From: a bacterium ADurb.Bin236 | GTDB taxonomy: Bacteria > UBP15 > UBA6099 | DNA length: 64,000 nucleotides | Assembly: GCA_002069885.1 (NCBI GenBank) | Contig: MWCD01000001.1 | Location: 67,795-131,794 of the forward strand | Direction: 5' to 3' | Shown: piece by piece, positions 7,969 to 61,011 of the stretch | Layout: every line of letters starts with the position of its first letter | Numbering within the stretch: position 1 is the stretch's first letter | The notes under the pieces: generated by a model | Told to the model about the DNA's origin: nothing | The model's database searches: none | Seen by the model: the letters and a program-made list of their open reading frames with translations, nothing else | Program-made: the position numbers and the translations under genes

Positions 7969-10041
7969 CTAACGAAGAATATCTTTGATACGGTTTTTGA
8001 CGGCGTCCTTCAGTTTCTCGCCATCTCCGGCATCCTTGTTTTCAGAGGAAGAACCGGCAAGCTTCTGTTTTGCCTTATCCAATAGTTTATCCGCTTCTTT
8101 GTTAATAAGTCTTTCAGCCTCGCCTCTAAGCAGTCGTTCGACATCCCAATAAACTTTCGGATCGTTTACGTTTCCGGTCACGTCGAAAGATGTTTCGATA
8201 TCTTTAAGTTCAGAAAGTTTTCCGAGTTTTGAAGCGACCGGTTTGAAATCTTTAATAGTTTTCAGCACGGCGGGCGGCAGAGAGGCTGTGGCCCTGAGAT
8301 TGAGGTCGCCGTTGAAACCTATCGCTCCGGCGACATCAGCGTTTATCATCGGCGACCTCAAGGCGGCGCGATTGATGCCGACGGTTTCGTTGCCGACATG
8401 AAACTGTCCGTCGAAAGAATGAAAACTGAATTTGGAAAGATTAAGGTCAGCCGGCATCGAGATGGAATCGACGTCGTATGGATTCGCAACGATACCGGCA
8501 AAGATGGAAATAGCGGCGTCCGCATTCAATTTGCGGAGAGAGTCGGAGCGTCCGTTAACGCGGGCCGACGCTGCGAACTCGCCGGACAGAGTCCCCGCAA
8601 AACTTGGGTTGTGTTTGAGAACTTCTCCGATGTTTTTCGAATTGGCAACGATGGAGAAATCATAGCGCGCGGGAGATGCGGGCGTGTTTGTTAGAGCGTC
8701 AATCGTGTACTTTATCCAGCCTGCCGCCGAAGCGGTTAACGCCGCTCCGTCCAGTTTGACGGAATCTATGATAATGTCAGGCTGTTTGTGCCTTGCGGAA
8801 ACTGTCAATGTCTTAAAAGGGATATCCGCCCATGTCCCTTGTCCGCCGCGCAGGGCGGGGGAGGGGTATCTGATTGAGCCTTCTTTCACTGTTGCGGATG
8901 CGTGGGCGGATAAAGCGCTCCATTCGTTTGCTGAGCCTTCGAGCGCGATTGTTCCGTCCGCCACTCCGAGAAGAACCTTCGGAGCGTCAGGCGCTAGCGC
9001 CGCCGCAAGCGCGTCCGGGTATATTCCGGCAAATGAAATCTCGGACGAAAACGCGCGCGATGCGTCCGCTCCGAGTGTGCCGGTCGCGTCTAAAGACGCT
9101 TCTGACGATTCCACAGACGCATTGAACGACGCGCCGCCTCGATTCATTTTTATTGCCGCGACGCCCGCTCCTAAATCGTGTTCCAACGCGCGAAGCTTCT
9201 TCATGTCGGCTTTGAATTCGAGATCGGGAGACACTAAATCTCCATTAATGGCGGCAGACAGTTTTGCGTCGCCGCTGATTTTGAGTTTTTTGATTATCTC
9301 TGCGTCTATAAACGCCGCCAAAGCCGCCGGAGGCTTAGACAATTCAATCGTGTCGGTCTCAATGTTGAAACGCACAGCAGCGCCGCCGGCGCTCTGTTTT
9401 ACTTTCCCCTTCGCGTTTGTTTGAACGCCTTCAATGTCGGCGTTCATCCTGACGGAGGTTTCCGCAAGAGTCGAATCCTTGCCTTTCGAAATCAATAACG
9501 CATTAATGTTCGTCGCGCTGATGGCGACCGCGTCAGCGGAATCTCTATTTATTGTCGCCATGACATCGCCGTCTTGGATAGTAATCTTATTTATTAAAAC
9601 CGAAGGGCCTTTAGGTTTCGGCGCGGTATCGGAAAACGATTCGATTATGTCGTCAATGTCGCTATGACCTGCCTCGTCGATATTTATTGAGACGCTCGGA
9701 CGGACCAGATTGACTCTCGACACGGTTATTCTGCCTCTAAGCAAATCTCTGAAACTTATCCTGAATCTCATCGCGTCAATCTTTACAGCGTCCTGCTTGC
9801 CCGGTTCCGCCGACGCCACAGTAATATGCCTGACTGAGAACCCGGTAAAAGGGTTGCCGCCGAGATTTCCGGCGGAGACGTCCCGGCCAATCCTTTCCGA
9901 GGCGGCCTTCAGCATGTGGTTTTTAAGCTTCTCAGCAGGCGACTGAGCCAGAATTGTGGCGACCACGAAAAGAACGGCGAGAGAAAATGATGAAACAATG
10001 ATTGCCGTGCGATTCTTTTTTATTGCGGTCTTTATGTTCAT
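7969..10041 (-). CDS. AsmA-family outer-membrane assembly protein
   Basis: An N-terminal TM anchor is followed by a long beta-rich AsmA-like region (RISFRDLLRGRITVSRVNLVRPSVSINIDE). Length is 690 aa. Confidence 0.7.
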   Translation of the reverse strand: MNIKTAIKKNRTAIIVSSFSLAVLFVVATILAQSPAEKLKNHMLKAASERIGRDVSAGNLGGNPFTGFSVRHITVASAEPGKQDAVKIDAMRFRISFRDLLRGRITVSRVNLVRPSVSINIDEAGHSDIDDIIESFSDTAPKPKGPSVLINKITIQDGDVMATINRDSADAVAISATNINALLISKGKDSTLAETSVRMNADIEGVQTNAKGKVKQSAGGAAVRFNIETDTIELSKPPAALAAFIDAEIIKKLKISGDAKLSAAINGDLVSPDLEFKADMKKLRALEHDLGAGVAAIKMNRGGASFNASVESSEASLDATGTLGADASRAFSSEISFAGIYPDALAAALAPDAPKVLLGVADGTIALEGSANEWSALSAHASATVKEGSIRYPSPALRGGQGTWADIPFKTLTVSARHKQPDIIIDSVKLDGAALTASAAGWIKYTIDALTNTPASPARYDFSIVANSKNIGEVLKHNPSFAGTLSGEFAASARVNGRSDSLRKLNADAAISIFAGIVANPYDVDSISMPADLNLSKFSFHSFDGQFHVGNETVGINRAALRSPMINADVAGAIGFNGDLNLRATASLPPAVLKTIKDFKPVASKLGKLSELKDIETSFDVTGNVNDPKVYWDVERLLRGEAERLINKEADKLLDKAKQKLAGSSSENKDAGDGEKLKDAVKNRIKDILR

Positions 10042-17204: not shown

Positions 17205-19526
17205 TCAAAACTCAAGCCTGACGAGCGTTCCGTCGGGATGAAGAGGCGCTATGAGATGTTGAACGCCTGTGAGTCCATGCCATCCTTTGCCGATGTCTAT
17301 TAACATTTCTTCGCCGCCGGGAAGCTTGTAGAAGGCTTTTGACGGAGGGTTTTGAGAAGCTATCATCACGACCCATGCGGCCCCGTATACGCCTTCCGGG
17401 CCTGACAACAGGAATTCGTACGAATCAGGCGCCGAGCGCGCGCCGGATACGTTTCCGCCCGCGAATACCACGCATGCCGAAGCTTCAAGATTGCACCAAT
17501 CCATCGACGCGTCGACCACATCCAGAAGAATCGCGTTGCCGCCCTCCTCAACCACTGTCTCGTCTGTCACCGGCTGATACGGCTTCATCGCGTCTATAAA
17601 ACTGCCTTTGAGTTTATGAGACCCGCGCAGGGAATGAACGATAAGGAAAGGGCCTCTGGAAACCTGATGAATGTCCGTGGCGATGAAAGAGTTTTTGCCG
17701 CCTCTGGCGAGAGCCGCCTCCAAAATCGCTGCGAGAAAATCCTCGCCTGATTTTTTTTCGGCGACAAATTCGCCGGGAACGCCGGAGTAAACGAGAACGC
17801 CTTCGCCGCACCCTGCGGCCCACACAGCCGGTTGCCCATCGACAGTCATCCAGACATCGGCTCCCGCAGCAGCCGCGTTGTAAAGAACGGCTGGCGCGAG
17901 CGCTGTCAGATCGCCCAGATACGATATGTTCGCGGGAGCCTGCGGGGCGGCGGTCAGTTTAACTTCTTTGGACGCCGGTTTTCCATCCGGGCCCGGCGCT
18001 CCGGACAAAACGACTTTTTTAGCGGACGTCACGCCCGGCAGAAGCTTTTCGAGCAATGCGTCGGTCGGAGTGTCATAACCCACCTTTTTCCACCAAGCGC
18101 TATCGATGTTGTTGAAAGCGTCCTCTCCGCCCGTCAGGAAAAGGATTCCGCCTTTTTTCACCCACGAGGCGATGCCGTCGACAATATCAGAATCCTCCGG
18201 TTTCCAAGCGTCAAAAGAAGCGATTAGCAGCCTTATGCCGGGCGGCATGTAACCGGGTTCGGCCATTCGTTCTGCTGGGACGACCTTCATGTTCACGCCA
18301 GCGCGCGCGAGCGAAAGCATGGGAGCTAGATGTCCGGCTAGCCTGTCGGAGCCTGCGCCTTTCTGCCACATCAGCGTGTCGGCGGTCAACGCTCCTATAA
18401 CAGTCGTGCCGCCCGCGTACCGCCCGCCTCCGGGCATTGCTCTCTGTGCCGACCACATTGTCATGAGCGCGGACGCGTGCTCCTGCGGGATAGCGCTTCC
18501 GCCTGCCGCCCCGTATTTGTCAGTCGACAGGAATACCCGTTCTGGCCATGGAACGACCTCGTAGTAAGCCGCTCTCATTTGCATCAGCGCCGCAGCGAGC
18601 GTGTCCTCGTGCCAATCCCTCAGCTTTGCCCAACTGTCCCCTTCCCTGTCGTCAACCGGGTCGGCGAGCAGTATCAGACTTTTTCCCGTGCCGGCGGTGA
18701 GATTTTCAAAATAGTTATATTCAAGAAGCGCGTATGAAAAAACGTCGCTTTCAATTTTTCCGCCGACCTTCTGCATGCCTCTGGCTGTTCCCGTCCAGAC
18801 CTGCCCGACAAACCCGTCAACGGCGTCGAGCGCGCTTATCGCGTGATGCGGAGACACAATGCCCCACTGGGCGTAGTTCAAATTGCTGTGCATGGGAACA
18901 ATGCAGAGGACATCCGGCGCTTTTTCCTTCACATGACCGCAAAGGTCTCTGTAGAATTCCTCGAACAACGAGGCTTTTAGTCTGTTGGCCTTAAAAACGG
19001 ATGCCGGAGTGGTATACGGCCCGCGCCACGGCTCGCCGTAAAACTTCCGCCATTCTTTTTTAAATGCGTCTTCATAGCCGGTCGAAGCGAAATATTCGGG
19101 CTCTTCAGGAAGAATCGCTCTCGCTCCGGCTTCTATGTGAGCGTCCGCAAGCGATTTCATGTATTCCCGCCACGGCTCCGTGGGAGACACCCATGCCCTT
19201 CCCGGTATCATCTCGAAAGGCTGTCCCCCGGCCATCATCTGCACTATTCCGGGGTTTTTTTTGACTATCTCGGCGTCCCTGCTGAGCCAACTCGCGCTGA
19301 ACATGGCGAACGGCATGAAGCCTCTCGATTTCCATGTTTCAATCAGGCCGGGATTAGTACCGTACACGATTGCGATATCAGCCGGAAGATGCAGTTCCGG
19401 ACGCCATTCCCGGGATGTCTGAAAAGACGTCCTCGGCTGCCTTGCCCCGGCTGCTCCGAACAACATCAAGCTCCCTGATAAAACAGAGACGACCACCGCA
19501 AACCTAAGTCCGTATGTTCTTTTCAT
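17205..19526 (-). CDS. Large exported protein of unknown function (possibly a glycosidase-like enzyme)
   Basis: There is a Sec signal peptide (MKRTYGLRFAVVVSVLSGSLMLFGAAGA). Length is about 770 aa, and I did not recognise a signature motif. It sits directly upstream of galK in the same orientation. Confidence 0.5.
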   Translation of the reverse strand: MKRTYGLRFAVVVSVLSGSLMLFGAAGARQPRTSFQTSREWRPELHLPADIAIVYGTNPGLIETWKSRGFMPFAMFSASWLSRDAEIVKKNPGIVQMMAGGQPFEMIPGRAWVSPTEPWREYMKSLADAHIEAGARAILPEEPEYFASTGYEDAFKKEWRKFYGEPWRGPYTTPASVFKANRLKASLFEEFYRDLCGHVKEKAPDVLCIVPMHSNLNYAQWGIVSPHHAISALDAVDGFVGQVWTGTARGMQKVGGKIESDVFSYALLEYNYFENLTAGTGKSLILLADPVDDREGDSWAKLRDWHEDTLAAALMQMRAAYYEVVPWPERVFLSTDKYGAAGGSAIPQEHASALMTMWSAQRAMPGGGRYAGGTTVIGALTADTLMWQKGAGSDRLAGHLAPMLSLARAGVNMKVVPAERMAEPGYMPPGIRLLIASFDAWKPEDSDIVDGIASWVKKGGILFLTGGEDAFNNIDSAWWKKVGYDTPTDALLEKLLPGVTSAKKVVLSGAPGPDGKPASKEVKLTAAPQAPANISYLGDLTALAPAVLYNAAAAGADVWMTVDGQPAVWAAGCGEGVLVYSGVPGEFVAEKKSGEDFLAAILEAALARGGKNSFIATDIHQVSRGPFLIVHSLRGSHKLKGSFIDAMKPYQPVTDETVVEEGGNAILLDVVDASMDWCNLEASACVVFAGGNVSGARSAPDSYEFLLSGPEGVYGAAWVVMIASQNPPSKAFYKLPGGEEMLIDIGKGWHGLTGVQHLIAPLHPDGTLVRLEF

Positions 19527-19766
19527 ATAATTATTATAACATCGCGAATATTGCCGAATCAAAACAAATATTTCCATCTATCCGGCATATCAGCGCGAAT
19601 GATGCTTCGTTCATCGCGTATAGGGTCTTTCTAACAATGACACGGATTAAATTATTAGTTGATACCCGCACATTTATGTGTTATCTATATATGGCGTTGA
19701 AATGGGCGCGGGAAGCGCCTATAGCGTATTTTTTAATGATTAACAAACGCAGGCGAGGTTTTCAAC

Positions 19767-20885
19767 ATGGATAGAGCCGATTTCATCAAATTCGTCGAAT
19801 CGGTCAGCCGCAATCCTGTCGAGCAGATTAACAGTTACAAGAGGCAGGAAAGGCCGGTGTTCGGCTACACGTGCAGTTATGTGCCGGAAGAACTGATTGA
19901 CGCGATGGGGATAATCCCGGTGAGGATGCTGGGCCGCGCTCAGACGATCCAGTCGGCGGAGCGGCATTTTCAGTCTTATTGCTGTTCTCAGGTGCGCAGC
20001 CTTATGGAGGAGTTCGTAGATGGGGTTTACGCCTCTCTCGACGGCCTGCTCTTCGCTCACACATGCGACACCATGCAGCAGTTCCATGACATCTATAAAA
20101 AGAACTTCCCCAAGGCGTTCGTTAAGAACATAAATTTTCCCTCGCGGCTCGACGGGGAGATTCCATACAACTACGCGCTCGCAGAGACGAAACGTTTTCT
20201 CAAATCCGTTGAAGAGTTCACCGGCAGGCCGCTCAGTTCGGACAGCCTCAAGGAAAGCGTGACCGCGTACAACAAAAATAGAACGCTGCTTGAAAAGCTT
20301 TACGGACTCCATCTTAAGTATCCCGTCGATATTCCCAGCCGCCTCCTTCTCCAGTCGGTGATAATGACTCAATGCGTGGACAAGCGCGAGGCGAACAAAT
20401 GGCTGGAACAATTCCTCTCCTCTTTCGACGAAAAGACTCCTGAGGACTCGAAGCGGAAAAGAATAATGCTGGTCGGAAGCGTGAACATCAACGAGGAAGT
20501 GTACGACCTCGCCGACGAGTTCGGGGCGATGATAGCGGACGACGATCTGTGCACAGGAAGAAGATATTTCTCGACGCAGGTGTCGGAACCTACGATCGAA
20601 GGAGTGACGCGCAGATACCTGAGCCGACCGCACTGCGCAGCGAAACACCGAGACGTGCACTCCCGCGAGCGCTGGCTGCTCGAACTTATCGAGAAACGCT
20701 CCATCGACGGCGTAATTTTCCTTTACCTCAAGTTCTGCGACCCGCATTGCTTCGACTACCCGGACCTCAGAAAAGCCATAGAGGAAAAGAAAGTTCCGAC
20801 TCAGCTCATCGAGATGGAGCAGTCCGTCGCGCAGTCCGGACAGTTGCGCACCAAGTTGCAGGCGTTTGTGGAAATGATTTCCTGA
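19767..20885 (+). CDS. 2-hydroxyacyl-CoA dehydratase subunit (HgdB/HadC-like component D)
   Basis: This belongs to the HGD-D family, with blocks resembling HgdB, HadC and BcrB. Length is 372 aa. Confidence 0.7.
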   Translation: MDRADFIKFVESVSRNPVEQINSYKRQERPVFGYTCSYVPEELIDAMGIIPVRMLGRAQTIQSAERHFQSYCCSQVRSLMEEFVDGVYASLDGLLFAHTCDTMQQFHDIYKKNFPKAFVKNINFPSRLDGEIPYNYALAETKRFLKSVEEFTGRPLSSDSLKESVTAYNKNRTLLEKLYGLHLKYPVDIPSRLLLQSVIMTQCVDKREANKWLEQFLSSFDEKTPEDSKRKRIMLVGSVNINEEVYDLADEFGAMIADDDLCTGRRYFSTQVSEPTIEGVTRRYLSRPHCAAKHRDVHSRERWLLELIEKRSIDGVIFLYLKFCDPHCFDYPDLRKAIEEKKVPTQLIEMEQSVAQSGQLRTKLQAFVEMIS

Positions 20886-20904
20886 CACTCTGGAGAACGC
20901 GAAC

Positions 20905-22173
20905 ATGGAACAGTTCAACCAATTAAGCGAGATATCCAGCAACGAGCGGCTTCGCAAGCTGATGGTCGGCTATTACATGAAGGCGAAGTTCTCGTGGCTG
21001 ACGAGAAAGAAAATAGCGTGGATAACGAGCGGCGGCCCTGTGGAGCCTCTAATATCGATGGGCATTACCCCCATCTATCCCGAGAACCACGGAGCGATGA
21101 TAGGCGCGCGCAAGATGGGGCCCGAACTCTCCGACGCCGCCGAAGACCTCGGCTACTCGCGCGACCTCTGCTCGTATTTCAGGTGCGATGTCGGCTCGGC
21201 CGTCCTCAAGAAAAGCCCTATCGACATCAGGCCGAAATTCCTCGGCGGTCGCGCCGTGTTCGGCGGCGGACTCCCGAAGCCCGACCTGCTTGTCTGCTGC
21301 AATAACATCTGCGGAACCGTCCTCAAATGGTACGAAGTTCAAGCCAGATTCTTCAACGTCCCGCTCATTATCGTGGACACGCCGTATAACTATGACGGCG
21401 AAACCACCGAGATTATCGAATACGTCACGGCTCAGTTCGGCGAGATGATAACTCAAATCGAAAAAGCCACCGGCAAGAGATTCAGCGAAAAAGAATTTAT
21501 CCGCGTCGGCGAACTTTCCGACGAAGCAGTTAATCTCTGGAACGAAGTCCTCAGCATCTGCGAGAACGTGCCGGCCCCCATGACCTGCTTCGACGCGTTC
21601 ATGTATCTTGCCCCCATCGTCACCCTCAGAGGAACGCAGGAAGTCGTCGATTATTACAAGCAACTCAAGGTTGAGCTTCAGAGTCTTGCGGACAGAAAAA
21701 TATCGCCCGTACCGGAAGAAAAGTTCAGGCTGATATGGGACAACCTGCCGATATGGTTCAAGATGCGGCGGCTGTCAAAAACTCTGGCTAACTACGGCGC
21801 GGTGCTGGTCGCGGACACTTATACCAACGCGTGGGCGGACAACGATATAAGCGTGGAAAAACCTATCGAAAGCATGGCGCGAGTTTACGCCACCGCCTAC
21901 CTGAACAGAAACACCGAAACAAAGATAAAAAACATGGTGAACCTGATGAACAGGTTCAAAGCCGACGGATTCCTCATTCATTCCAACAGGAGTTGCAAAC
22001 CTTATTCGTTCGGGCAGCTCGACATCAAAGACGAGGTTTCCAGAAGGACGGGCAAACCGGCTCTGATGATAGAGGCTGACATGTGCGATCCGCGCGCGTA
22101 CTCGGACGAACAGATAGCCACCAGAATTCAGGCTTTCATCGAAACTCTCAAGGAAAGGAAAGCCACAGCTTGA
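20905..22173 (+). CDS. 2-hydroxyacyl-CoA dehydratase subunit (HgdA/HadB-like component D)
   Basis: This is a second HGD-D family member of 422 aa, immediately downstream of the first. Confidence 0.7.
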   Translation: MEQFNQLSEISSNERLRKLMVGYYMKAKFSWLTRKKIAWITSGGPVEPLISMGITPIYPENHGAMIGARKMGPELSDAAEDLGYSRDLCSYFRCDVGSAVLKKSPIDIRPKFLGGRAVFGGGLPKPDLLVCCNNICGTVLKWYEVQARFFNVPLIIVDTPYNYDGETTEIIEYVTAQFGEMITQIEKATGKRFSEKEFIRVGELSDEAVNLWNEVLSICENVPAPMTCFDAFMYLAPIVTLRGTQEVVDYYKQLKVELQSLADRKISPVPEEKFRLIWDNLPIWFKMRRLSKTLANYGAVLVADTYTNAWADNDISVEKPIESMARVYATAYLNRNTETKIKNMVNLMNRFKADGFLIHSNRSCKPYSFGQLDIKDEVSRRTGKPALMIEADMCDPRAYSDEQIATRIQAFIETLKERKATA

Positions 22174-22943
22174 TTACTCTCGGAATAGACCTCGGCTCTA
22201 ACACAGTAAAAACAGTCCTTCTGCGCGACGGCTCTCAAGTGATAGCAAGGTCTTTGCGCAAAGGCGGGCACGACATGGAAACCGTCATGAACGAGTGCTT
22301 GGAAGAAGTTTACTCCGCCGCTTCCGGCGAGAAGCCCGACAAAATCGTGGCGACCGGATACGGGCGCGTGAGTTGCAAGATAGCCGACAAAGAAATCAGC
22401 GAGATAAGCTGCCACGGGCGCGGCGCCTATTTTTCGATGCAGGGCGCAAGGACGGTCATCGACATCGGCGGGCAGGACAGCAAAGCGATTAGCCTCTCCG
22501 ACAACGGCAAGGTGATAGATTTCGTTATGAACGACAAATGCGCCGCCGGAACCGGGCGCTTCTTGGAAGTCATGGCTCAGGCCCTTCAAGTCCAGCTCGT
22601 GGATTTCGGAGACGTCTCTCTCAAAGCCGACCGCTCCGTCGATATTTCCAACACATGCACCGTCTTCGCCGAATCGGAAGTAATCTCCCTTATGGCCAGA
22701 CGGGAATCCAAAGAAAACATCATCGCCGGACTCCACAAAGCGATAGCGGCGCGCGTCATTGCTATGGCGAAAAGACTGCGCATCGAGGACGAAGTCGCCT
22801 TCACAGGCGGAGTCGCCCTTAATTCAGGCGTGAAACGCGCTCTGGAATCAGCTTCCGGAAAGAGCATCAAGACCCCCGATCACCCGCAACACATAGGCGC
22901 TCTCGGAGCCGCTCTTTTCGCCTTCGATATGGCAAAAGAATAG
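22170..22943 (+). CDS. CoA-substrate-specific enzyme activase (HgdC/HadI-like ATPase of the BadF/BadG/BcrA/BcrD family)
   Basis: The ASKHA N-terminus ITLGIDLGSNTVK is present. A TTG start overlaps the upstream TGA, and an AGGAAAGGAA RBS precedes it. Length is about 257 aa. Confidence 0.75.
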   Translation: MITLGIDLGSNTVKTVLLRDGSQVIARSLRKGGHDMETVMNECLEEVYSAASGEKPDKIVATGYGRVSCKIADKEISEISCHGRGAYFSMQGARTVIDIGGQDSKAISLSDNGKVIDFVMNDKCAAGTGRFLEVMAQALQVQLVDFGDVSLKADRSVDISNTCTVFAESEVISLMARRESKENIIAGLHKAIAARVIAMAKRLRIEDEVAFTGGVALNSGVKRALESASGKSIKTPDHPQHIGALGAALFAFDMAKE

Positions 22944-23016: not shown

Positions 23017-23634
23017 TTAGATTTCGTTATTGGGAACGGGTTTGGACATTTTGAGCCAGCGGCCGCAGTTGAAGAAGCGTTTGAGGTTTTCGGAATCGCG
23101 GGTCTTTTCTATCTTGTATCCCAGTTTATGGTACAGACTGATTGCGGGAGCGTTTTCGGCGGACACCCACAGAGAGATAGATTTCATGGATTTTTCCCCG
23201 GCGTATCTTTCCGCGCGCGCGAGCAAGGCCGCGGCGATGCCGCGGCGATGGAATTTGGGGGCGACGGCGAGTTGGGAGACGCACGCCTCGTCCCGCTCCA
23301 GCGACTGGCCGAGCAGAGACAACATGTAAAGCGCTTTCATTCCCCTGCCCGTCCCTAACCTGTCGAGGTAATTCTCTGCGACGGCGTCGCTGGGGGCGCA
23401 ACCGAAATCGAGTCCGACGACTTCAACGCTGCCGGCTATCTCGCCGTCCATAAGAGCGACAAAGAGGTTTGAATCCGCTCCCCTCCATTCCATTTCGGCG
23501 GCGATAATTTCCTCCGCTGTCCTGATGTCGTCGCACATCGCCTTGTATTTGTCTGAGAATGCGGTCGCGAGCAACTTTGCCAGTTCGCGACCGTCGCGGT
23601 CGCGTTTTTCGACTATTTCCGTTCGGGATGCCAT
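23017..23634 (-). CDS. GNAT-family N-acetyltransferase
   Basis: The acetyl-CoA binding motif HRRGIAAALLARAERYA...LGYKIEK is present. Confidence 0.75.
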   Translation of the reverse strand: MASRTEIVEKRDRDGRELAKLLATAFSDKYKAMCDDIRTAEEIIAAEMEWRGADSNLFVALMDGEIAGSVEVVGLDFGCAPSDAVAENYLDRLGTGRGMKALYMLSLLGQSLERDEACVSQLAVAPKFHRRGIAAALLARAERYAGEKSMKSISLWVSAENAPAISLYHKLGYKIEKTRDSENLKRFFNCGRWLKMSKPVPNNEI

Positions 23635-23670: not shown

Positions 23671-24507
23671 TTAATCCCAGCCGCCGACTTTCTGCGCCCA
23701 GAAGCGAGCGCGGCGTTCGCGCGGCCCGCCGTCAGGTCCGATTAGTATGTCCCGCCTGTCTTCGGCAAGCGCCTGAAACTTGGCGGGGTTTTCTATCTTG
23801 AGTTTATCGAAAAGTTCTCTGACGATATTGCTGACATCCCTTTCGGAGATGCGGTATACGGATTTGAAGATGCCCGGATGCAGGTTGCCGTATGTTCTAG
23901 GCTCGTTGGGACTGTCCATGCCGCATTCGCTGTGGCTTCGCGGCCCTTCGTCGGGCACTGAGATGAACGCGAAAAGTTTGGGCAGATATTTTTCTCTGAA
24001 CCGCGCATAAGCGGGCAGGTTCAGGACGTGACCGAAAGTTGGCGCGTTTTCCGGAATATACTCTGCGGCGGTCATGCCCGACTCAAGCAGTTTTGCTTTG
24101 GCTTCTTCGTCCTCGGAGTAATACTCGAACAGCATCGGCACGAAGTTGGTGTGGCTTGTCAGGTCGGAAATGGCGTGAGACGACCTGCCTAGAATCCTGT
24201 ACATCGACTCAAGCTTTCCGGGCGGGTGTTTTTTGTCGTCCGCAATTTCCATTATCAGGTCGCGGTGCATGCGCCAGTTTTCGATGATTTTCTCAGGCTC
24301 CTGCCAGTGGTCGAAATGGTCGAGTTCCTGATACCATCTGCGGGCGAACGGATATAGAGGAAAAACTTTCCAGTTTAGAGCCTTCCATCCGATGACGCCG
24401 TAGAAGTCCGTGTTGAAGTTATACCTTGCGACGGTGTCGATGGCCGCCGGAGACAGATGGTCTCTAAAAGCCGTTTTAACTATGGACAGATGATAAAGAG
24501 TGTTCAT
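23671..24507 (-). CDS. Hypothetical protein
   Basis: The ORF is open, but I recognised no family. Several His/Asp-rich blocks (HFDHW, HTNFVP) are present. The start is uncertain (ATG at 24507, or upstream at 24615). Confidence 0.4.
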   Translation of the reverse strand: MNTLYHLSIVKTAFRDHLSPAAIDTVARYNFNTDFYGVIGWKALNWKVFPLYPFARRWYQELDHFDHWQEPEKIIENWRMHRDLIMEIADDKKHPPGKLESMYRILGRSSHAISDLTSHTNFVPMLFEYYSEDEEAKAKLLESGMTAAEYIPENAPTFGHVLNLPAYARFREKYLPKLFAFISVPDEGPRSHSECGMDSPNEPRTYGNLHPGIFKSVYRISERDVSNIVRELFDKLKIENPAKFQALAEDRRDILIGPDGGPRERRARFWAQKVGGWD

Positions 24508-24660
24508 GTGGCGGATATCCTGACCCGATATTAGCCGGGGCCGCTGTGGAAGAAAAGCTAGCGGCGCGCGCGCCTTATTAATATTCAATATAGCGCCCCG
24601 GAGGCCGGAGGTCAAAAAAGAGTTTTCTTTTTAATCTTTATTGCGTCATTGTTTTGAGGT

Positions 24661-25260
24661 CTAGCCGGGGCCGCCGTCTGAAGCCATTGTCCTAGCAATT
24701 TCGAGGTCTTCCGGATTGTTCACGTTGAAGACGAATCTGCGCCACGAATCTTCATCGAGGCCGAGGTCGGCGGCGGATATCCAGCGAATTCTCAGTTCTT
24801 CAATGCAGGCCATTATTTTGAAGACGCCGCGGCTTATTCCGCGCTCAATCGCGTCGCGCGCCGCGATAGAGTATGAAGACAAGAGTGGCTGAGGTCCTTC
24901 TTTAGAAAAAACAATTCCGGCGTCCGAGTCTTTCGAAAGGTCGAAAACGCGGGCGAGTGTGGCTCCATCTATAAAAGGTGTGTCGCAGGGGGCGACTTGG
25001 TATTGTTCTCTAGGAAAAGCGTTCATAACGGAGAGCAAACCGCCAGCAGGCCCTTGTCCGGGGGTATCGTCCGCAATGGCGGCAAGCCCTAGCCGGGAGT
25101 AGCGTTCCGGCTCGTTGGTCGAGAGAATGATTTCCGGGAAGTAAGGAGAAAGCTTTTCTATTATGTCGTCAATAATCGGGCGGCCGTTGAGTTCCAAGCG
25201 GGTTTTATCCGCGCCCATGCGGGAGCTTTTCCCGCCCATGAGAAGTATTAGGGTTCTCAT
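24661..25260 (-). CDS. mobA: Molybdenum cofactor guanylyltransferase
   Basis: The MobA N-terminal motif LILLMGGKSSRMGADK is present. The ATG overlaps the stop of the upstream mcsAB-like gene. Confidence 0.75.
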   Translation of the reverse strand: MRTLILLMGGKSSRMGADKTRLELNGRPIIDDIIEKLSPYFPEIILSTNEPERYSRLGLAAIADDTPGQGPAGGLLSVMNAFPREQYQVAPCDTPFIDGATLARVFDLSKDSDAGIVFSKEGPQPLLSSYSIAARDAIERGISRGVFKIMACIEELRIRWISAADLGLDEDSWRRFVFNVNNPEDLEIARTMASDGGPG

Positions 25261-26933
25261 CTGCGGGAGCGCGACCTCCCCGCGCCCCTTCCGTTTGCGA
25301 TTTCGGAGTCTTTCGAATACAGCCATGCGTCCACGATTTCCGCAAATAGGTCCGCGCGGCGGGCCTCGCATTCGTTGATGCTGCTCGTTTTTCCGTCCGC
25401 TAGCATTATTCCGGCGGACGACATGGCGGGCAAAACATCGGAAACGGCGAACGCGGGCATCTCGACCAATCCTCTATCCAGAGCGAGGGAAAAGAGCGAA
25501 ACAAACCTGAGGGCGTCATGATATGAAAGCCTGTGCGCGCGTTTGGCGTTGTGTATGACGCGCGGAATGGCGCGATACATCCTGTTTTCGTCGTCGGGCG
25601 AGAAGGCGTCTCGCAACTCCCCTTCTCTCTGAATAAGTCGCGCGGCGAAATCACCTGTCGAAACGGCTATCTCTTCGGCGGTCTGGCCGAATCCGACGAG
25701 AGCCGACACAAGATAGAAGCCGTGATGTTCGAGGTTGGAGCCTCTGAAGGGTTCGACTTTCACGGAATAGCGCTCCGCTCTGTCCGGCCAAAAGAATGTG
25801 TCGCCGCTCAGAAAACTGTAAGGCAGATGCAACAGGATGGACGCCGAAGCTCCCGACCCGATATATTTCGGCGAGGCCGCAAGATAACCGAACCTCGGAG
25901 AGAACGCCGGTTCGGCGTTCTTTTCCATTCCCTCGACAGCCTTAAGAGCCTTTGCCATCAGAGCTGCGGCGTCCGCGCCGGCAGCGCCGGACTGGAACGC
26001 GCTCACCGAAAGATGATCAATGTCGTTTATCAGCGCCGACATTGAGCCGTCGCGATTTATGAGGGCAGAAGAACGAGGTTCAGGCCGCCTCATGAAAAAA
26101 CGTTCGCCGAGGGCGAGCCTCTCAATCGCGGACAGAAGCTTCATATCTATTCTTGAAGAAGCTGAAATAAAGCCCTTGGGCAGAAGCGAAACGGCTAGAA
26201 GCTCGACAAGCTCGCGCCTTGAGGGCGAAAGCCTGCCGGGAAAATTGAAACCGGAGAAATTGCGTCTGAGTTCGACGCGGCTCCATACTATTCCCGTATC
26301 GTTGGAAGACGGCGAGCAACCGCCGCCGGAGTTAATTGCCGATTTTGCGGAAGCGTCGAGCTTCAGCGCAGCCGGGAACCCCTGCGCGGCCCTTTTCGAC
26401 GCATCTATCCGGGATTTCGCGCGGCATTCTACTTTCTTTTCCAGCTTCAGAAGGGCTTCCTTATGTTTCCCAGCGGACGCATAGTCTTCCGTCCTGATTT
26501 CTTCTTCTATTCTGTTTTTCAGTTTCAGGAGTTTCGAACGCTCAGAGTAAGCCGCCGGGGACGGCCCTCTGTAAAACGACACGCCATCGGCGAGCGAGCA
26601 ACCAAGCAAAGAAAGATAACCGGTAAGCATCGAGCCGAAAACGGAAGCGCATTCCGGGCAACCGAGCCTGAAACCGCGTTCGAATTCCCGGAGTTTGGTT
26701 CCGCAAGCTCTGCAACTGTCCGCAAACTCAACCGGCAAATCGTAGCAGGAGAGAGTCTGGGAGAGGTCGTCCGCGCCGCCAAGACCTCTTATCTGGGACT
26801 CGACGCGCCTGAGAGCGGCCAGCATCCCCACGGATTCCGCGCATTCCGCGCAGAAACCCACTCGCGGGCTTTCCTGTCTTCCCCAAGACAGGAAGTAATC
26901 AGCTTTGTTTTCACCGCATTTCGAGCACTTCAT
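25257..26933 (-). CDS. mcsB: Fused McsA-McsB: an N-terminal McsA-like Zn-finger/UVR module joined to a protein arginine kinase (ATP:guanido phosphotransferase) domain
   Basis: The N-terminus has CxxC pairs (CSKCGEN..CAECA..CRACG..CPEC) and a UVR-like helix (LKNRIEEEIRTEDYASAGKHKEALLKLE). The C-terminal blocks VWSRVELRRNFSGFNFP, INDIDHLSVSAF and GYLAASPKYIGSGASASILLHLP align with Bacillus subtilis McsB as I recall it. Confidence 0.7.
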   Translation of the reverse strand: MKCSKCGENKADYFLSWGRQESPRVGFCAECAESVGMLAALRRVESQIRGLGGADDLSQTLSCYDLPVEFADSCRACGTKLREFERGFRLGCPECASVFGSMLTGYLSLLGCSLADGVSFYRGPSPAAYSERSKLLKLKNRIEEEIRTEDYASAGKHKEALLKLEKKVECRAKSRIDASKRAAQGFPAALKLDASAKSAINSGGGCSPSSNDTGIVWSRVELRRNFSGFNFPGRLSPSRRELVELLAVSLLPKGFISASSRIDMKLLSAIERLALGERFFMRRPEPRSSALINRDGSMSALINDIDHLSVSAFQSGAAGADAAALMAKALKAVEGMEKNAEPAFSPRFGYLAASPKYIGSGASASILLHLPYSFLSGDTFFWPDRAERYSVKVEPFRGSNLEHHGFYLVSALVGFGQTAEEIAVSTGDFAARLIQREGELRDAFSPDDENRMYRAIPRVIHNAKRAHRLSYHDALRFVSLFSLALDRGLVEMPAFAVSDVLPAMSSAGIMLADGKTSSINECEARRADLFAEIVDAWLYSKDSEIANGRGAGRSRSRR

Positions 26934-27088
26934 CGAAATCTCCGCTGCGGCTGGAACCGCTCAAACTTTAATATACCCGTTTTTCAGTATACGAGACTGA
27001 GCGCGCGCATTCAATCTGAAAGTGAAATGAAATACAGCCTAAAATGTATGTCCACTTAATAAATGTTATTGATCGCGCTGCGGCGAAG

Positions 27089-45735: not shown

Positions 45736-46746
45736 CTATCTATCCGATGCGACTCCCGAATAACCGACCATCTTCTGTCCTTCCAATCCATCATATATGG
45801 CGTCAAGCAAGGGGACGGCTATCAAGGGCTGAGCGTTGGCTTGGCTGGCGATCATAGTAGCGCCCTGCTGCTTAATCATGTTCTTGGTATACTCGAATAT
45901 CTCGTTGGCGAAATCCGCGTCTTCGATGCGCGAGTTCGAAGCCGAGACGTTGATGTACTGTGTGTTCAGATCGTTAATTGTTTTGTCCAGCCGTTCGTGC
46001 AGGATGCCGACCTGCACGCGCACCGCGTTCATCTTCTCCATCATGCCGTCCACCCTATCAAGCATAGCGTCGGCATATCCGAGATAGTAGTTGTAGCCAG
46101 CGTCGCCGAAAGGAGGCGGCGGCGCGTACGGAGTGTTAAACCCTACGAATTCGGCCGCTAGGTTGTCAATTACGATTTGAATCTGATTTGCGGCTGAATT
46201 GTTTGGGCCGACCTGAGAAGCTTGTCCGGTCTCGAAACCGTTGCCCAAACTGTCGTCGCCGAAAATTGTTTTAAGATTGAAGTTGAACCTCGCTGTGTGG
46301 ATAGGCGCGCTCGGATCGAGCTGATTATGAAACGCTCTGTAAACATGATCCTGTAATTTTTCGATTTCTTTAGTGAGGGACCAGCAGTCGCTCATGCTGG
46401 GCACAGACGCCGGGTCAGTATTGGGGTTGACGTTGTTCACCGCCATGTTGGCGAGTTTTAGAGTCAGGTTTCGCATCTCGTACAGAACGTCCCATTGATC
46501 CGAAACATAGTGGTCGGTCAGATCCAACAGATACTGGGTGTCCTGAGCGTTGCCGATAGCGACGCTTACGCCTCGCATCTGAGCCTTCATGCCTGATGAA
46601 ATCGCCATGCCGGACGGATCGTCCGAAGCATAGTTGATTTTCAATCCGGATGAGAGCCGAGTGGTTTTTTCGGTAAATTCCAGTTGATTGAGTCTGGAGT
46701 AATTCTGTGACGTGAGCGCATAGATATTGGTGTTGACCGATATCAT
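45736..46746 (-). CDS. Flagellin-family protein (336 aa) with a C-terminal extension
   Basis: The N-terminus RLSSGLKINYASDDPSGMAISSG and the C-terminus SRIEDADFANEIFEYTKNMIKQQGATMIASQANAQP match flagellin. About 30 extra residues follow the usual flagellin C-terminus. A GGAGG RBS is present. Confidence 0.75.
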   Translation of the reverse strand: MISVNTNIYALTSQNYSRLNQLEFTEKTTRLSSGLKINYASDDPSGMAISSGMKAQMRGVSVAIGNAQDTQYLLDLTDHYVSDQWDVLYEMRNLTLKLANMAVNNVNPNTDPASVPSMSDCWSLTKEIEKLQDHVYRAFHNQLDPSAPIHTARFNFNLKTIFGDDSLGNGFETGQASQVGPNNSAANQIQIVIDNLAAEFVGFNTPYAPPPPFGDAGYNYYLGYADAMLDRVDGMMEKMNAVRVQVGILHERLDKTINDLNTQYINVSASNSRIEDADFANEIFEYTKNMIKQQGATMIASQANAQPLIAVPLLDAIYDGLEGQKMVGYSGVASDR

Positions 46747-53898: not shown

Positions 53899-55212
53899 TC
53901 AGTGGTCGGGGTAATAGCCCGTTACGCCCGTTGAAGACACTACTCCGGGAACGGAACCTGTAAAGTTAATCTTCTTGATCAAAGGAGACAAGCCTGAGTT
54001 GTCCGCGAAAACAATCGAATTCCCCGCCGCGTTCCATTTAGGCGCAAGATAAATCTGGTCTGACGAAACGACAGCCGGATTTGAAGAAATGGAACTCATC
54101 ACAAAAAGGTCGGAGCAAGTGTCGCCGACGGGAGGGACCTGCCCGCCGCCGGGGGCCGCGCATTCGTGGTCGAACTGAAAAATGACTTTGCCGTTCGGCT
54201 CGATGTCAGGATTTTTCGCGGAGCATTGACCATCGCCTGCGTCGCAAACGGGAGCTCCTGCGCCTGACGGATTATAAAGAAGCGAGGCCGCGCCAAGAGG
54301 ATTCACCGTGATTTTCCAGAGGTTCGAGTTCGACGCCGAGCCTGCTCCGCCGTCAACCGCGCGGTAAGACGAATATACGAGAGCGTTGTTTCCGGGCTGC
54401 CAAGCGGGAGCCTCGTCTCTCGCGGAGTGAGTCGTTATTCTTGTGACGCTTCCGCCGGTCGAAGTCATAGTGTAGATGTCGTACTGGCCCGGAGCGTCGG
54501 ATGAGTAAGCGATTTTCGCCGCGTCGTGGCTCCATGAAAGACCGCTGTATCTAACGTCTGTTCCGGAAGCCAGCGTGGTCAGAGTTTCAACATTTGAAAC
54601 GCAAGCGGCCTTTGCGATGCTTTGATTGCCAGCTCCGTCGTCGCGGACGAAAATCACCTGTTTGCCGACTGGAGAGAGCGCGGCGTACGAGTGAGCTCTG
54701 CCGGGAAGGTCTTCGCAAATCCTGCGGGCTGTGGCAGAGTTGGACGGGTTGGCCGCAAAAACCCTGTTGTAGCCTGACACCGGGTCGGCGGCGATGTACA
54801 CCATATCGCCTGCGGCGATGTCGCATATATTGCAACTTAATGGGTTCTGATAGTTCACGGTTCGAGCTACGGTTTTTGTGTTTCCGGAGCGAGTTGCGAC
54901 CACTGTTATGGTCGAGGTGGACGAGATGTCCACGTTTGCTCTGCTGAAAGTTCCATTGGCCGCGACTGTGACGGCGACATTGTTTACTTTTACCGTTGCG
55001 TTTGAGTTCGTGCTGCCTGAGACGGTTATTCTATCTACGTAGTATGTTTGGCCGTCATATAGAGGGCTGTCGACGGTGAGGAAAAAAGTCGGGTCTGTGG
55101 GAGTGGAGGCCCCACCTCCTCCGCCCCCGCCTCCACAGCCTGAAACGGCCCATGCGGAGACAATCATCATAAGAGCGAGGACAACCCGCGATGCCGCTGT
55201 TTGATTTTTCAT
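53899..55212 (-). CDS. PD40/TolB-like beta-propeller lipoprotein with a poly-Gly linker
   Basis: The lipobox AVSGC is followed by GGGGGGGG. PD40-like repeats (KIAYSSDAPGQYDIYTM, NALVYSSY) are present. The start overlaps the kdsA stop. Confidence 0.6.
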   Translation of the reverse strand: MKNQTAASRVVLALMMIVSAWAVSGCGGGGGGGGASTPTDPTFFLTVDSPLYDGQTYYVDRITVSGSTNSNATVKVNNVAVTVAANGTFSRANVDISSTSTITVVATRSGNTKTVARTVNYQNPLSCNICDIAAGDMVYIAADPVSGYNRVFAANPSNSATARRICEDLPGRAHSYAALSPVGKQVIFVRDDGAGNQSIAKAACVSNVETLTTLASGTDVRYSGLSWSHDAAKIAYSSDAPGQYDIYTMTSTGGSVTRITTHSARDEAPAWQPGNNALVYSSYRAVDGGAGSASNSNLWKITVNPLGAASLLYNPSGAGAPVCDAGDGQCSAKNPDIEPNGKVIFQFDHECAAPGGGQVPPVGDTCSDLFVMSSISSNPAVVSSDQIYLAPKWNAAGNSIVFADNSGLSPLIKKINFTGSVPGVVSSTGVTGYYPDH

Positions 55213-56039
55213 ATCATGTCCTGCTTTTTCACCATCGCGTCCAGCGCTTTCGCGTGAAGCAACAGGTTTTTAAGATTTTTCAACGGAACCATATTCTGGC
55301 CGTCCGAAAGAGCCTCGTCAGGCTCGTGGTGAGTTTCGAGGAAAAGCGCGTCCACGCCGACCGCCATGCAAGCGCGGACCAGAGGATCGACGAACTCGCG
55401 TTGTCCGCCGCTGGAAGTGCCGGCCCCGCCGGGCAACTGCACGCTGTGCGTGGCGTCGAAACAGACCGGATATCCGAACCGTCTGATTATAGGCAGCGAC
55501 TTGAAGTCCACCACAAGATTGTTGTAGCCGAATGTGGAGCCGCGCTCTGTTATAATTATTTTATCATTTCCGGCGCTGAGGCATTTGTCGATTATGTTGC
55601 GAACGTCCCATGGAGCAAGGAACTGGCCTTTCTTGATGTTGACCGGTTTGCCTGTCTTGGCAGAGCCGACGACAAGGTCGGTCTGTCTGCAAAGAAAAGC
55701 GGGTATCTGGATGATATCGATGAAAGGAGCAATCTCGTCGACTTCCTCCAACGAGTGGGCGTCCGTGGTTACAGGCAGTCCAAGGTCGCGTTTGACTTTT
55801 GCGAATAGTTTTTTGCCAGATTTGATGCCGAGTCCCCTGAAGGAGGAGCCGGACGACCTGTTTGCCTTGTCGTATGACACCTTGAATACGAGCGGCACGC
55901 CGATTTCGCCGCAGATGCTCTTCAGCTCCTTCGCGATGGAGAAACAGCTATCCTCGCTTTCGAGGACGCAAGGCCCGGCGATTAGAACAAAAGGCGCGCC
56001 CCCGCCTATGGGGATGCCGCTTATGTCGAATCCAGTCAT
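55209..56039 (-). CDS. kdsA: 2-dehydro-3-deoxyphosphooctonate aldolase (KDO-8-phosphate synthase)
   Basis: The N-terminus FVLIAGPCVLES is present, and the overall KdsA similarity is clear. Confidence 0.85.
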   Translation of the reverse strand: MTGFDISGIPIGGGAPFVLIAGPCVLESEDSCFSIAKELKSICGEIGVPLVFKVSYDKANRSSGSSFRGLGIKSGKKLFAKVKRDLGLPVTTDAHSLEEVDEIAPFIDIIQIPAFLCRQTDLVVGSAKTGKPVNIKKGQFLAPWDVRNIIDKCLSAGNDKIIITERGSTFGYNNLVVDFKSLPIIRRFGYPVCFDATHSVQLPGGAGTSSGGQREFVDPLVRACMAVGVDALFLETHHEPDEALSDGQNMVPLKNLKNLLLHAKALDAMVKKQDMI

Positions 56040-56085
56040 CAGATGTTATCCCCGCCCGCCGCTGTAACCGCGACGATAGTAAATA

Positions 56086-57207
56086 TTATAGCGCTCCGGC
56101 CCCGCCCGCAGTATCCCGTCGCAAATTCAGGATGTCTTCGACATGCCGCGAACCGGACGCGATATCGACGTCGATAAGCAATTTGATCCATGCGCGCCTC
56201 GGTTTGAAATGGCCGGGCAGGCGCACGGCGTCTTTTTCAGTGGTCACGATCCAGTCGGCCCCGGCTCTCGCCGCCGCGTCTTCCACCCGCTCCAAATCCG
56301 CGTCTCCATATGGATGATGGTCCGTGAATCTATATGCGATGACCGCCTCGCCAGTAACGTTTGCCACCGTTCTTTCAAACTGTTCGGGATTTCCAAGCCC
56401 GCTCACCGCCAGAGCGCGCGTCCCTCTAAGACTGTCTATGCCGGGCGATTCGCCCTCCCCTATCCTTTTCGCTCCGGATATTTTATAGACGGATTCGACG
56501 ATAGGCGTTCCGGGAAACATGCGGGAGAGAGCGTCGCGGGTCTGCGCTGTTTTTTCCGCGCCCGCCGCGTCTATCCGGGTCATCCAGAACAATGTTGCCC
56601 GTTTTAACTCGGTCAGAGGCTCTCTGAGCAAACCTGCTGGGAAAAGTTTTCCGAACCCGAAAGGGTTGCAGGCGTCGATCACGGCGATGTCGGCGTCTCT
56701 GGCCAGCGTAACAAACTGAAAGCCGTCGTCGAGAACAATCGAGCCGCAAGAAAAACGGTCGATAAGAGAGCGCGCGCCGCGCGCGCGGTCAATGTCAACC
56801 GCGACCGGCCTGCCGTCCTCGAGGTATAAAATCGGCTCGTCTCCGCAACTGTGCCATGATAGCGCGTCGGCGCGGGATGAAAGAATGATAGAGCCTGAGC
56901 CTTCCCTTCCGTAGCCGCGAGTCGCTATGCCGGGATTCATTCCTCTTTCGGCAAAACCGGAGGCGAGCATCCTGCAGATAGGAGTCTTGCCCGTGCCGCC
57001 GAGGGTAATGTTTCCAACGCTGACCACCGGAACATCGAGTTTGAGCGCCGGAGCGGCGGAAAGTTTTTTCATCCTAGCGGCGTGAGCGACGCGGTAAAAC
57101 TCGGACATAGCAAACATGCCGGCGCGGCAAACAGCCGCCGCCGCGCCTTTCTTTTCGCCGGACATTATGGGATATAGTTTGGAACCGCTCCGGGAGTCTA
57201 TTATCAT
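56086..57207 (-). CDS. lpxK: Tetraacyldisaccharide 4'-kinase
   Basis: The P-loop VPVVSVGNITLGGTGKTP is present. Confidence 0.8.
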   Translation of the reverse strand: MIIDSRSGSKLYPIMSGEKKGAAAAVCRAGMFAMSEFYRVAHAARMKKLSAAPALKLDVPVVSVGNITLGGTGKTPICRMLASGFAERGMNPGIATRGYGREGSGSIILSSRADALSWHSCGDEPILYLEDGRPVAVDIDRARGARSLIDRFSCGSIVLDDGFQFVTLARDADIAVIDACNPFGFGKLFPAGLLREPLTELKRATLFWMTRIDAAGAEKTAQTRDALSRMFPGTPIVESVYKISGAKRIGEGESPGIDSLRGTRALAVSGLGNPEQFERTVANVTGEAVIAYRFTDHHPYGDADLERVEDAAARAGADWIVTTEKDAVRLPGHFKPRRAWIKLLIDVDIASGSRHVEDILNLRRDTAGGAGAL

Positions 57208-60114: not shown

Positions 60115-61001
60115 ATTATTCCCGCCATAAGCAAAACTTCGTTCATAGCCGACATAACAAAACACACCGCAAACGATGTGCGCATCCTCTTAAAAGTCAG
60201 GCTCATAACAAGAGTCATAAGGAGCGCCTCCGCTATGAATCCTCCTATAATTGACTGTATCGGGATTGTTCCGAGGAAAGAAAAAAAGGCGAAGTAAGGA
60301 AGGTGCACGGCTGAAATCATCGTCAGCAGAATAACGGTCGTTCCGACAGTTGTCAGCCCTCTTTCGTCTTGTCTGTTCCAGACTGCGTAAATGAAACTGA
60401 ACAGAATCAGCGCCTGTGACCACATAACGGCAAAATGAGGGGCGACTTTCCAGAAATCAAAACTCACCGGAAATCCCCAGTTTGAGACGAAGATGACAGT
60501 GTACGCAAGAACAACGCATCCAGCCAACGCGGATTTGGCAATGTCGGCAGTCATTCTGCCTTTTCGCATCCCGAATTTTGCCATAAGCCCGGGTTCGGAC
60601 ACGGCAAGATAAAAAACCGCCCAACAAGCGAACGCCGGATAAAAAACATACATTTTCGGAGTGTCGTAGAAAAAGTATTCCCACGACTGAAAACCGGGCA
60701 TGCTGATTAGAATCAATACCGCGCGCCGGAGATTCAACGCGCCGAAAACCGCCAGCCCGCCGATAAAGATTATCAAATGCAGCGCGACCGCATAGCAGTC
60801 GGAAACCTGTCTTTCAAACAATCCTGCTTTATGCATAAAAACCATGAATCCTGAAACGCATCCGTAAGCGAAAAGCAGAATAATAGCGCGGATGAAAACA
60901 GGGTCGCTGAACGACCTGAACTTTTCGCGTTCAAGAGAAGCGTCTTCCTTTAGTCGCAATTCAGAGAATGTTTTTTCAAGTTCAGCCGAGCCTAAGCTCA
61001 T
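60111..61001 (-). CDS. Polytopic integral membrane protein of unknown function
   Basis: There are about 8 predicted TM segments. I recognised no motif. Confidence 0.5.
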   Translation of the reverse strand: MSLGSAELEKTFSELRLKEDASLEREKFRSFSDPVFIRAIILLFAYGCVSGFMVFMHKAGLFERQVSDCYAVALHLIIFIGGLAVFGALNLRRAVLILISMPGFQSWEYFFYDTPKMYVFYPAFACWAVFYLAVSEPGLMAKFGMRKGRMTADIAKSALAGCVVLAYTVIFVSNWGFPVSFDFWKVAPHFAVMWSQALILFSFIYAVWNRQDERGLTTVGTTVILLTMISAVHLPYFAFFSFLGTIPIQSIIGGFIAEALLMTLVMSLTFKRMRTSFAVCFVMSAMNEVLLMAGII

Positions 61002-61011
61002 CGTTTGCGCC

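Follow-up and report, generated by a model that had tools for sequence, protein, structure and literature searches.

Protein-arginine phosphorylation by McsA and McsB serves bacteria as the counterpart of ubiquitin tagging and, to our knowledge, has been studied almost only in Firmicutes. In a 64,000-nucleotide stretch of contig MWCD01000001.1 from the bacterium ADurb.Bin236 (assembly GCA_002069885.1, positions 67,795 to 131,794 of the forward strand; hereafter the window, whose coordinates are used below), we identified by domain matches and AlphaFold modelling an open reading frame (ORF) of 558 residues in which an McsA-like module and an McsB-like part are joined on one chain (25257..26933, minus strand, stop codon included). 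A first-pass annotation of the same DNA had taken its product for a self-activating arginine kinase; we found, however, that the C-terminal domain lacks the catalytic residues of arginine kinases, reading NDIDHxS at the catalytic motif and carrying a C167S substitution. The interpretation we favor, with moderate confidence, is that the gene product derives from the McsA–McsB holoenzyme, now on a single chain, has turned pseudokinase and would act by binding.

Several properties of the described systems frame this comparison. In Bacillus subtilis, McsB has a catalytic cysteine (C167) and an NEEDH motif, and McsA binds the McsB kinase domain and activates it through its Z2-L3 segment, which superimposes on the N-terminal domain of phosphagen kinases (PMC11046695). 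The active site of Geobacillus stearothermophilus McsB consists of R29, R31, R126, E122, E213 and C168 (PMC12387690), and the phospho-arginine receptor site of McsB of R337, D338, R341 and S285 (PMC8370763). Proteins homologous to McsA and to McsB are present in some Proteobacteria, where their activity is uncharacterised (PMC11046695), and the Gram-negative Chlamydia trachomatis has an mcsAB operon that, like the window gene, lies apart from clpC and has no ctsR, although there McsA and McsB are separate genes (PMC10128030). Our literature search returned no account of fused McsA–McsB proteins or of McsB-type pseudokinases. When set against the Bacillus and Geobacillus McsA–McsB structures (8WTB, 8WTC, 6TV6 and 6FH1-3) and that of Staphylococcus aureus (8GQD), the window protein shares the order of modules (Z1, Z2-L3, a predicted coiled coil, kinase-fold domain, dimerisation domain), the eight zinc-ligand cysteines, the fold (template modelling (TM) scores of 0.81-0.85) and a dimer salt-bridge pair. 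It differs from the Bacillus and Geobacillus proteins in being one chain rather than two, with an identity of about 20-25%, in the loss of the catalytic Glu and Cys, of four of the five phosphate-binding arginines and of the lid Glu212, in having Cys, Glu and Tyr for R337, D338 and S285 of the receptor site, and in belonging to a host that produces lipopolysaccharide (LPS) and has neither ctsR nor clpC near the gene.

Inspection of the ORF showed 558 codons in a single reading frame with zero internal stops, so that no frameshift or stop splits it; the McsA module is joined in frame to the McsB part and no separate polypeptide is encoded beside mcsB. As independent assemblies hold the same ORF, an assembly artefact is unlikely, and the covalent fusion proposed in the first-pass annotation is borne out by the uninterrupted frame together with matches to both McsA and McsB. 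At the N-terminus, the NCBIfam McsA model NF053706 matched residues 1-171 nearly end to end (model positions 1-171 of 182, E-value 5e-8), with a score of 32.8 bits against an equivalog cut-off of 210; the McsA chain of PDB entry 8WTB (8wtb_B) was matched at an E-value of 7e-5, and a tblastn search with a Clostridial McsA from a canonical ctsR-mcsA-mcsB locus gave an E-value of 3e-12. The four CxxC pairs that had been noted in this region (C3/C6, C28/C31, C74/C77 and C92/C95) are present and form two domains of a zinc-coordinating type, with all eight cysteines invariant or at least 90% conserved in an alignment of 16 fused proteins. The first zinc-ribbon-like module, Z1 (residues 1-35, 26829..26933, minus strand as are all parts of this gene; C3, C6, C28 and C31), was delimited by cysteine conservation and has predicted local distance difference test (pLDDT) values of 77-94. 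The second zinc module with its L3 loop (residues 71-126, 26556..26723; C74, C77, C92 and C95) was delimited from alignments, and its consensus, PVEFADxCxxCGTxLREFERxFxxGCxEC, is among the best-conserved blocks of the protein. There follows a helical hairpin or coiled coil (residues 127-185, 26379..26555), which AlphaFold builds as helices 127-147 and 151-185 with pLDDT values of 92-98 and which would represent a degenerate UVR-like motif. Where a UVR-like helix had been suggested earlier, the model shows this hairpin, and Pfam UVR matches the relative P0011 above threshold at 23.7 bits (P0004 weakly, E-value 0.014), but the window protein itself had no Pfam UVR match even at an E-value of 10 or less. 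A variable linker (residues 186-212, 26298..26378; pLDDT 61-70) separates the McsA-like and McsB-like parts.

Homology to McsB spans residues ~210-540, with matches to McsB structures at E-values of about 1e-15. The guanidino-phosphotransferase domain that the first-pass annotation expected here is supported by Pfam ATP-gua_Ptrans (PF00217) at 55 bits against a cut-off of 22.4, the canonical fusion P0032 scoring 193 bits; the best score against the NCBIfam McsB equivalog models (NF002194, NF053707 and related) was 93.6 bits against a cut-off of 385. An AlphaFold model computed from a 138-sequence alignment had a mean pLDDT of 87.7 and a predicted TM score (pTM) of 0.82, with pLDDT values above 90 over residues 213-547, whereas an earlier 5-sequence alignment had given a pLDDT of only 57.9. 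Foldseek aligned the kinase and dimerisation domains of this model with McsB entries 6FH1 and 6TV6 at TM scores of 0.81-0.85 (best 0.85, to 6FH1_B) and E-values of about 1e-20. On these grounds we distinguish a phosphagen-kinase-fold domain with a remodelled active site (residues 213-445, 25599..26297; from PF00217, Foldseek and residue tables) and a dimerisation domain (residues 446-547, 25293..25598; from AlphaFold, Foldseek and alignments).

We compared the catalytic residues, using B. subtilis McsB numbering anchored at the catalytic C167 of a HMMER alignment; HMMER and two independent MAFFT alignments placed the residues identically, and the compared sites are flanked by invariant residues (R224-N225, N303, D306-H307, G349, P355, G359, G361, H369-L-P and G398). 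McsB R29 is retained as R219 of the window protein, but R31 corresponds to E221, E120 to D304, the catalytic E121 to I305, R125 to S309, the catalytic C167 to S354, N170 to Y357, R176 to S363, R207 to E394 and the lid glutamate E212 to S399. Of the six McsB active-site residues given in the literature, R29 alone therefore remains and five are substituted, and four of the five arginines that bind the ATP phosphates (R29, R31, R125, R176 and R207) are lost, two of them to acidic residues. These changes are concentrated in a degenerate NEEDHxR motif (N303-D-I-D-H-L-S309, 26007..26027, with Glu121 to Ile and Arg125 to Ser) and a degenerate catalytic-cysteine loop (G349-Y-L-A-A-S354-P-K-Y-I-G-S-G-A-S363-A-S, 25839..25889, with Cys167 to Ser and Arg176 to Ser), both located by alignment. 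Across the family of close relatives described below, position 167 is Ser or Ala, and position 121 varies among I, T, A, M, G, L, E and Q, as expected where catalysis is no longer selected. In 103 canonical McsBs, 45 positions show conservation of at least 90%. This degenerate family retains 18 of these, mainly glycines, prolines and others that do not belong to the published catalytic set; the 27 that it has lost take in every position contacting ATP or substrate. Judged from these residues, the window protein probably does not carry out canonical ATP-dependent arginine phosphorylation.

The second functional site of McsB is likewise altered. In the receptor site for phospho-arginine, R337 is replaced by C522, D338 by E523 and S285 by Y471, with only R341 kept (as R526), and these substitutions are invariant across the degenerate family; the salt-bridge pair of the Geobacillus dimer is preserved as R458/D473. 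In addition, there are invariant residues specific to the family, both in the strands and loops of the former active site (E221, R223, R282 and H404) and in the dimerisation domain (R468, Y471, D473, R476, S506, N520, C522 and E523). Because the family has its own invariant residues there, the alignments indicate that the former active-site and phospho-arginine pockets are rebuilt, not merely eroded.

An exhaustive profile search over 1.84 billion representative proteins returned 4,429 homologs, with a sharp score gap between the degenerate family (242-1092 bits) and all others (at most 143 bits). Clustered at 50% identity, the family amounts to about six full-length groups, plus fragments, and every member is fused and has a degenerate catalytic site; a further word-indexed search, made with a profile of 16 sequences, found the same five proteins again and no further fused relatives. 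A tree of the kinase and dimerisation domains recovered the family as monophyletic in 200 of 200 neighbour-joining bootstraps, with identities of 30-90% among its members and of 27% or less to any other McsB. The tree did not place its sister group: at about 2 substitutions per site the distances had reached saturation, and other degenerate McsB-like proteins are likely to draw the family towards them by long-branch attraction. The family is under strong purifying selection: in a comparison with the 88%-identical ortholog the ratio of nonsynonymous to synonymous substitution rates (dN/dS) was 0.093 overall, 0.045 for residues 1-126 (Z1 to L3) and 0.07 for the kinase-fold domain, the latter ranging over 0.07-0.15 across comparisons, while in two of three comparisons the linker had the top value of any segment (0.24-0.53). 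Full-length intact ORFs persist in lineages at 30-40% identity. Apart from this family, a number of unfused McsB-like proteins of ~350 residues (P0055, P0072, P0079, P0147, P0093, P0103 and P0075) also have heavily degenerate catalytic residues; in the case of P0055 (L024 3-1305), the gene is preceded by the end of a separate McsA-like gene (HIGRTP ... EDYEQAALLRDQIRALKE). As unfused McsB-like proteins are degenerate as well, catalysis in McsB relatives may have been lost more than once.

Our survey of the distribution of the fusion showed that the degenerate family is small, and that the McsA–McsB fusion as such is not unique to it and is found in other Gram-negatives, directly upstream of clpC in diderms. 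A complete canonical residue set is present in five fused McsA–McsB proteins of about 500-545 residues (P0017, P0024, P0031, P0032 and P0043), of which P0032 and P0024 have the full RRRN / NEEDH-R / C-P-N-G-G-R / R-G-G-E set; two others, P0014 and P0029, are partly changed, P0014 having H123A and C167S with the catalytic Glu and all arginines kept. In all three of the loci of P0032, P0024 and P0014, clpC is directly 3' of the fused gene (fused mcsAB of 529-535 residues plus clpC: L016 8001-12086, L017 6001-10112 and L018 6001-10074), and two of the three have the gene order prfB–lysS–lolCE–lolD–mcsAB–clpC–bamA–ompH–lpxD. The nearby bamA, ompH, lpxD and lol genes mark the hosts of these clpC-linked fusions as diderm. 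The window protein is like these fusions in being a single chain (theirs of about 530 residues), in domain order and in coming from an outer-membrane-bearing host, but they keep the catalytic Glu and arginines and precede clpC, and the window family does neither. More distant comparisons can also be drawn. Phosphagen kinases (arginine and creatine kinases) likewise have the kinase fold with an N-terminal helical module on the same chain, but in them the NEEDH Glu, the reactive Cys and the cluster of arginines are all retained, and they are without zinc fingers, a coiled coil and an McsB-type dimerisation domain. Bacterial Ser/Thr pseudokinases (PMC12599244) resemble it in combining a conserved kinase fold and degraded catalytic residues with purifying selection, a combination that points to a role other than catalysis; theirs, however, is a Hanks-type fold, while that of the window protein is the guanidino-phosphotransferase fold, with a different chemistry.

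If the window protein is a pseudokinase that acts by binding, we envisage that Z2-L3 would dock in cis on the kinase-fold domain in the way that McsA does in trans, as the pTM value of our model and the B. subtilis complex suggest, that a dimer would form via the retained R458/D473 pair, and that the remodelled pockets would bind a partner protein or small ligand, with the protein regulating, for example, a stress or proteostasis pathway or serving it as a scaffold. A number of points weigh against this reading. The in-cis docking has the high pTM as its one support, and we found no conserved gene neighbour of the fusion that would point to a pathway. Moreover, a new invariant residue, R223, is found two positions from where R31 was lost, together with R282 and an E402-H403-H404 motif, both likewise new; as the active site is remodelled rather than merely eroded, an unconventional catalytic activity is possible. 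Some predicted pseudoenzymes have proved active via non-canonical residues.

Because charged and histidine residues have newly become invariant at the former active site, a neofunctionalised enzyme or small-molecule sensor is a serious alternative, albeit one that we consider unlikely. The kinase pocket, from which the arginine cluster is gone and in which acidic and histidine residues have appeared (E221, D304, D306, H307, E394, E402, H403 and H404), would then bind or convert a different ligand, probably a cationic or metal-containing one, and the dimerisation pocket (R468, Y471, R476, C522, E523, R525 and R526) would bind an anionic effector. The residues invariant in the family are not scattered but sit in the loops of the former active site and in the former phospho-arginine pocket, which together with the strong purifying selection on the kinase-fold domain (dN/dS 0.07-0.15) fits such a function; no known catalytic motif has been recreated, however, and there is no constant metabolic neighbour, the MobA-like, IspD-like and IspF genes each being lineage-specific.

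Far less probable is the active, self-activating arginine kinase of the first-pass annotation, in which the attached McsA module would switch on the kinase without a separate activator. The whole McsA and McsB architecture is indeed in one chain, Z2-L3, which activates McsB in B. subtilis, is among its best-conserved parts, and the design appears viable because other bacteria have fusions in which the catalytic Glu and every phosphate-binding arginine are kept; but the window protein has E121I, C167S, R31E, R125S, R176S, R207E and E212S, the same sites are lost family-wide with position 121 unconstrained, the scores are far under the NCBIfam McsB cut-offs, and there is no clpC partner nearby. 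A decaying relic of an ancestral mcsAB–clpC locus, as might be argued from the missing catalytic residues and clpC linkage and from a prfB gene ~4 kb upstream on the same strand, as upstream of mcsAB-clpC in L016 and L018, is barely credible and is effectively refuted by the selection analysis (dN/dS about 0.09), with full-length ORFs at 30-40% identity and many family-specific invariants pointing the same way.

We tentatively propose, as something possible but on the doubtful side, that these proteins are the first recognised 'pseudo-arginine-kinases', fused, released from ClpC and with both pockets rebuilt into conserved ligand-binding or catalytic sites; if so, an uncultivated Gram-negative lineage would have a new zinc-finger-gated sensor or regulator. 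The occurrence of single-chain McsA–McsB in LPS-type bacteria supports Z2-L3 as the counterpart of the phosphagen-kinase N-terminal domain, and the intact, clpC-linked fusions extend the likely reach of the phospho-arginine–ClpC system past Gram-positives. A clade that is strongly conserved yet probably without catalysis also offers a natural experiment in which the scaffold or binding roles of McsAB are set apart from phosphotransfer, within the limits that the degenerate family is tiny, comes from metagenomes only and has no conserved partner indicating a pathway.

The fusion ORF starts at an ATG at 26933, with a Shine-Dalgarno-like GGAG 7 nt 5' of it (26943-26940), and within the 155-nt gap 5' of the ORF there is a promoter-like TTGAAT-17-TATACT (26986..27014, minus strand), recognised by consensus match only. 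Its 3' end reads CGC AGA TGA, in which the TGA overlaps the ATG of the next gene (ATGA, 25260-25257), as the first-pass annotation had stated. This next gene encodes a MobA-like nucleotidyltransferase of 199 residues (24661..25260, minus strand) that scored 108 bits, over the cut-off, against Pfam NTP_transf_3 (PF12804), but missed the MobA equivalog cut-offs (94.8 against 151.85 for TIGR02665 and 94.7 against 164 for NF001457). It is followed by a conserved hypothetical gene (23671..24615, minus strand; called at 278 residues in relatives) with no family match, and by a RimI-like GNAT acetyltransferase of 205 residues (23017..23634, minus strand), assigned by family match. The order PHP hydrolase – DUF1232 – fusion – mobA-like – hypothetical – GNAT is preserved at 88% identity or more, but mobA was absent near the fusion in all family members more distant than 88%. 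In four other lineages the neighbours were unrelated: one lineage had a divergent cluster with ispF among its genes, another a convergent IspD-like gene and a third a PAS histidine kinase, and the fourth had no recognisable neighbour. We considered and rejected a 'mobA-coupled system', given that mobA is found only at 88% identity or more and that the GNAT, IspD-like, IspF and histidine kinase genes are not constant either. The coupling to mobA that had been claimed for this locus therefore holds as an overlap, but it is not a feature of the family: the translational coupling is real but lineage-specific and probably incidental, and would be a recent lineage-specific arrangement outside the proposed mechanism.

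The GNAT gene has the wider distribution. Orthologs at 38-41% identity adjoin the fusion in three other lineages, L001/L002 (L001 11681-12292), L006/L012 (L006 4293-4913) and L013 (11765-12349), being convergent with it in all three and co-directional in the window; none is found beside P0006, P0008, P0009 or P0011. This recurrence could be due to a functional link or to residual synteny, both being possible. Only L001 and L002 have, near the fusion, a 51%-identical ortholog of the hypothetical gene. In the 42%-identical relative represented by L001, a giant ORF, exceeding 4,780 residues (L001 1-9343), is located just upstream of the fusion on the opposite strand.

The lack of ctsR and clpC near the gene, reported in the first-pass annotation, is upheld over a wider range. 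In none of eight arrangements examined in the degenerate family was clpC adjacent, nor did these eight contexts contain any Clp ATPase or CtsR, and the 64-kb window contains no ClpC-sized Clp ATPase, no CtsR homolog and no second McsB; CtsR boxes occur in it at chance level (7 found, 4.6 expected), none of them near the fusion. A search of the window with an approximate YwlE query together with a motif scan gave no match to low-molecular-weight protein tyrosine phosphatases (LMW-PTP) or YwlE, and scans of the locus found no molybdenum cofactor (Moco) or other riboswitch and no defence-system match. The strand of the fusion also carries, ~4 kb upstream of it, prfB (31025-32168, minus strand, with its ATG at 32168), which has a programmed +1 frameshift site, AGGAGG-TAT-CTT-TGA-C (CTTTGAC at 32099-32093). 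As in L016 and L018, too, only a few genes separate prfB from the fused mcsAB-clpC pair downstream of it, its position near the fusion may be a relic of a prfB...mcsAB-clpC synteny.

The host itself makes LPS and has an outer membrane, as lpxK, waaA, kdsA and an AsmA-family protein are encoded in the window (the kdsA – lpxK – waaA cluster at 55209-58550, minus strand, and an AsmA/DUF748 protein at 7969-10041), in agreement with the Gram-negative character first suggested for it. The nearest relatives of its SecA, at 58-66% identity, all come from metagenome-assembled genomes, which suggests that the lineage is uncultivated. Converging on the GNAT end of the fusion cluster is a 2-hydroxyacyl-CoA dehydratase set (19767-22943, plus strand) composed of two HGD-D subunits and a BcrAD/BadFG-type activator ATPase, a set typical for anaerobic amino-acid fermentation, and beyond it is an ORF of 790 residues (17205-19577, minus strand) with no Pfam or NCBIfam match. 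The window also encodes a giant flagellin of 983 residues (35218-38169, minus strand) with a central insert of ~740 residues containing PD40-like and TSP3-like repeats, a protein that the relatives at 98% and 88% have conserved, and nearby a flagellin of normal size (336 residues; 45736-46746, minus strand). Finally, region 58657-63365 (minus strand) encodes two adenylate/guanylate cyclase-domain proteins of 502 and 504 residues, the latter with a GAF domain, and between their genes are two ORFs of 296 and 280 residues with no family match.

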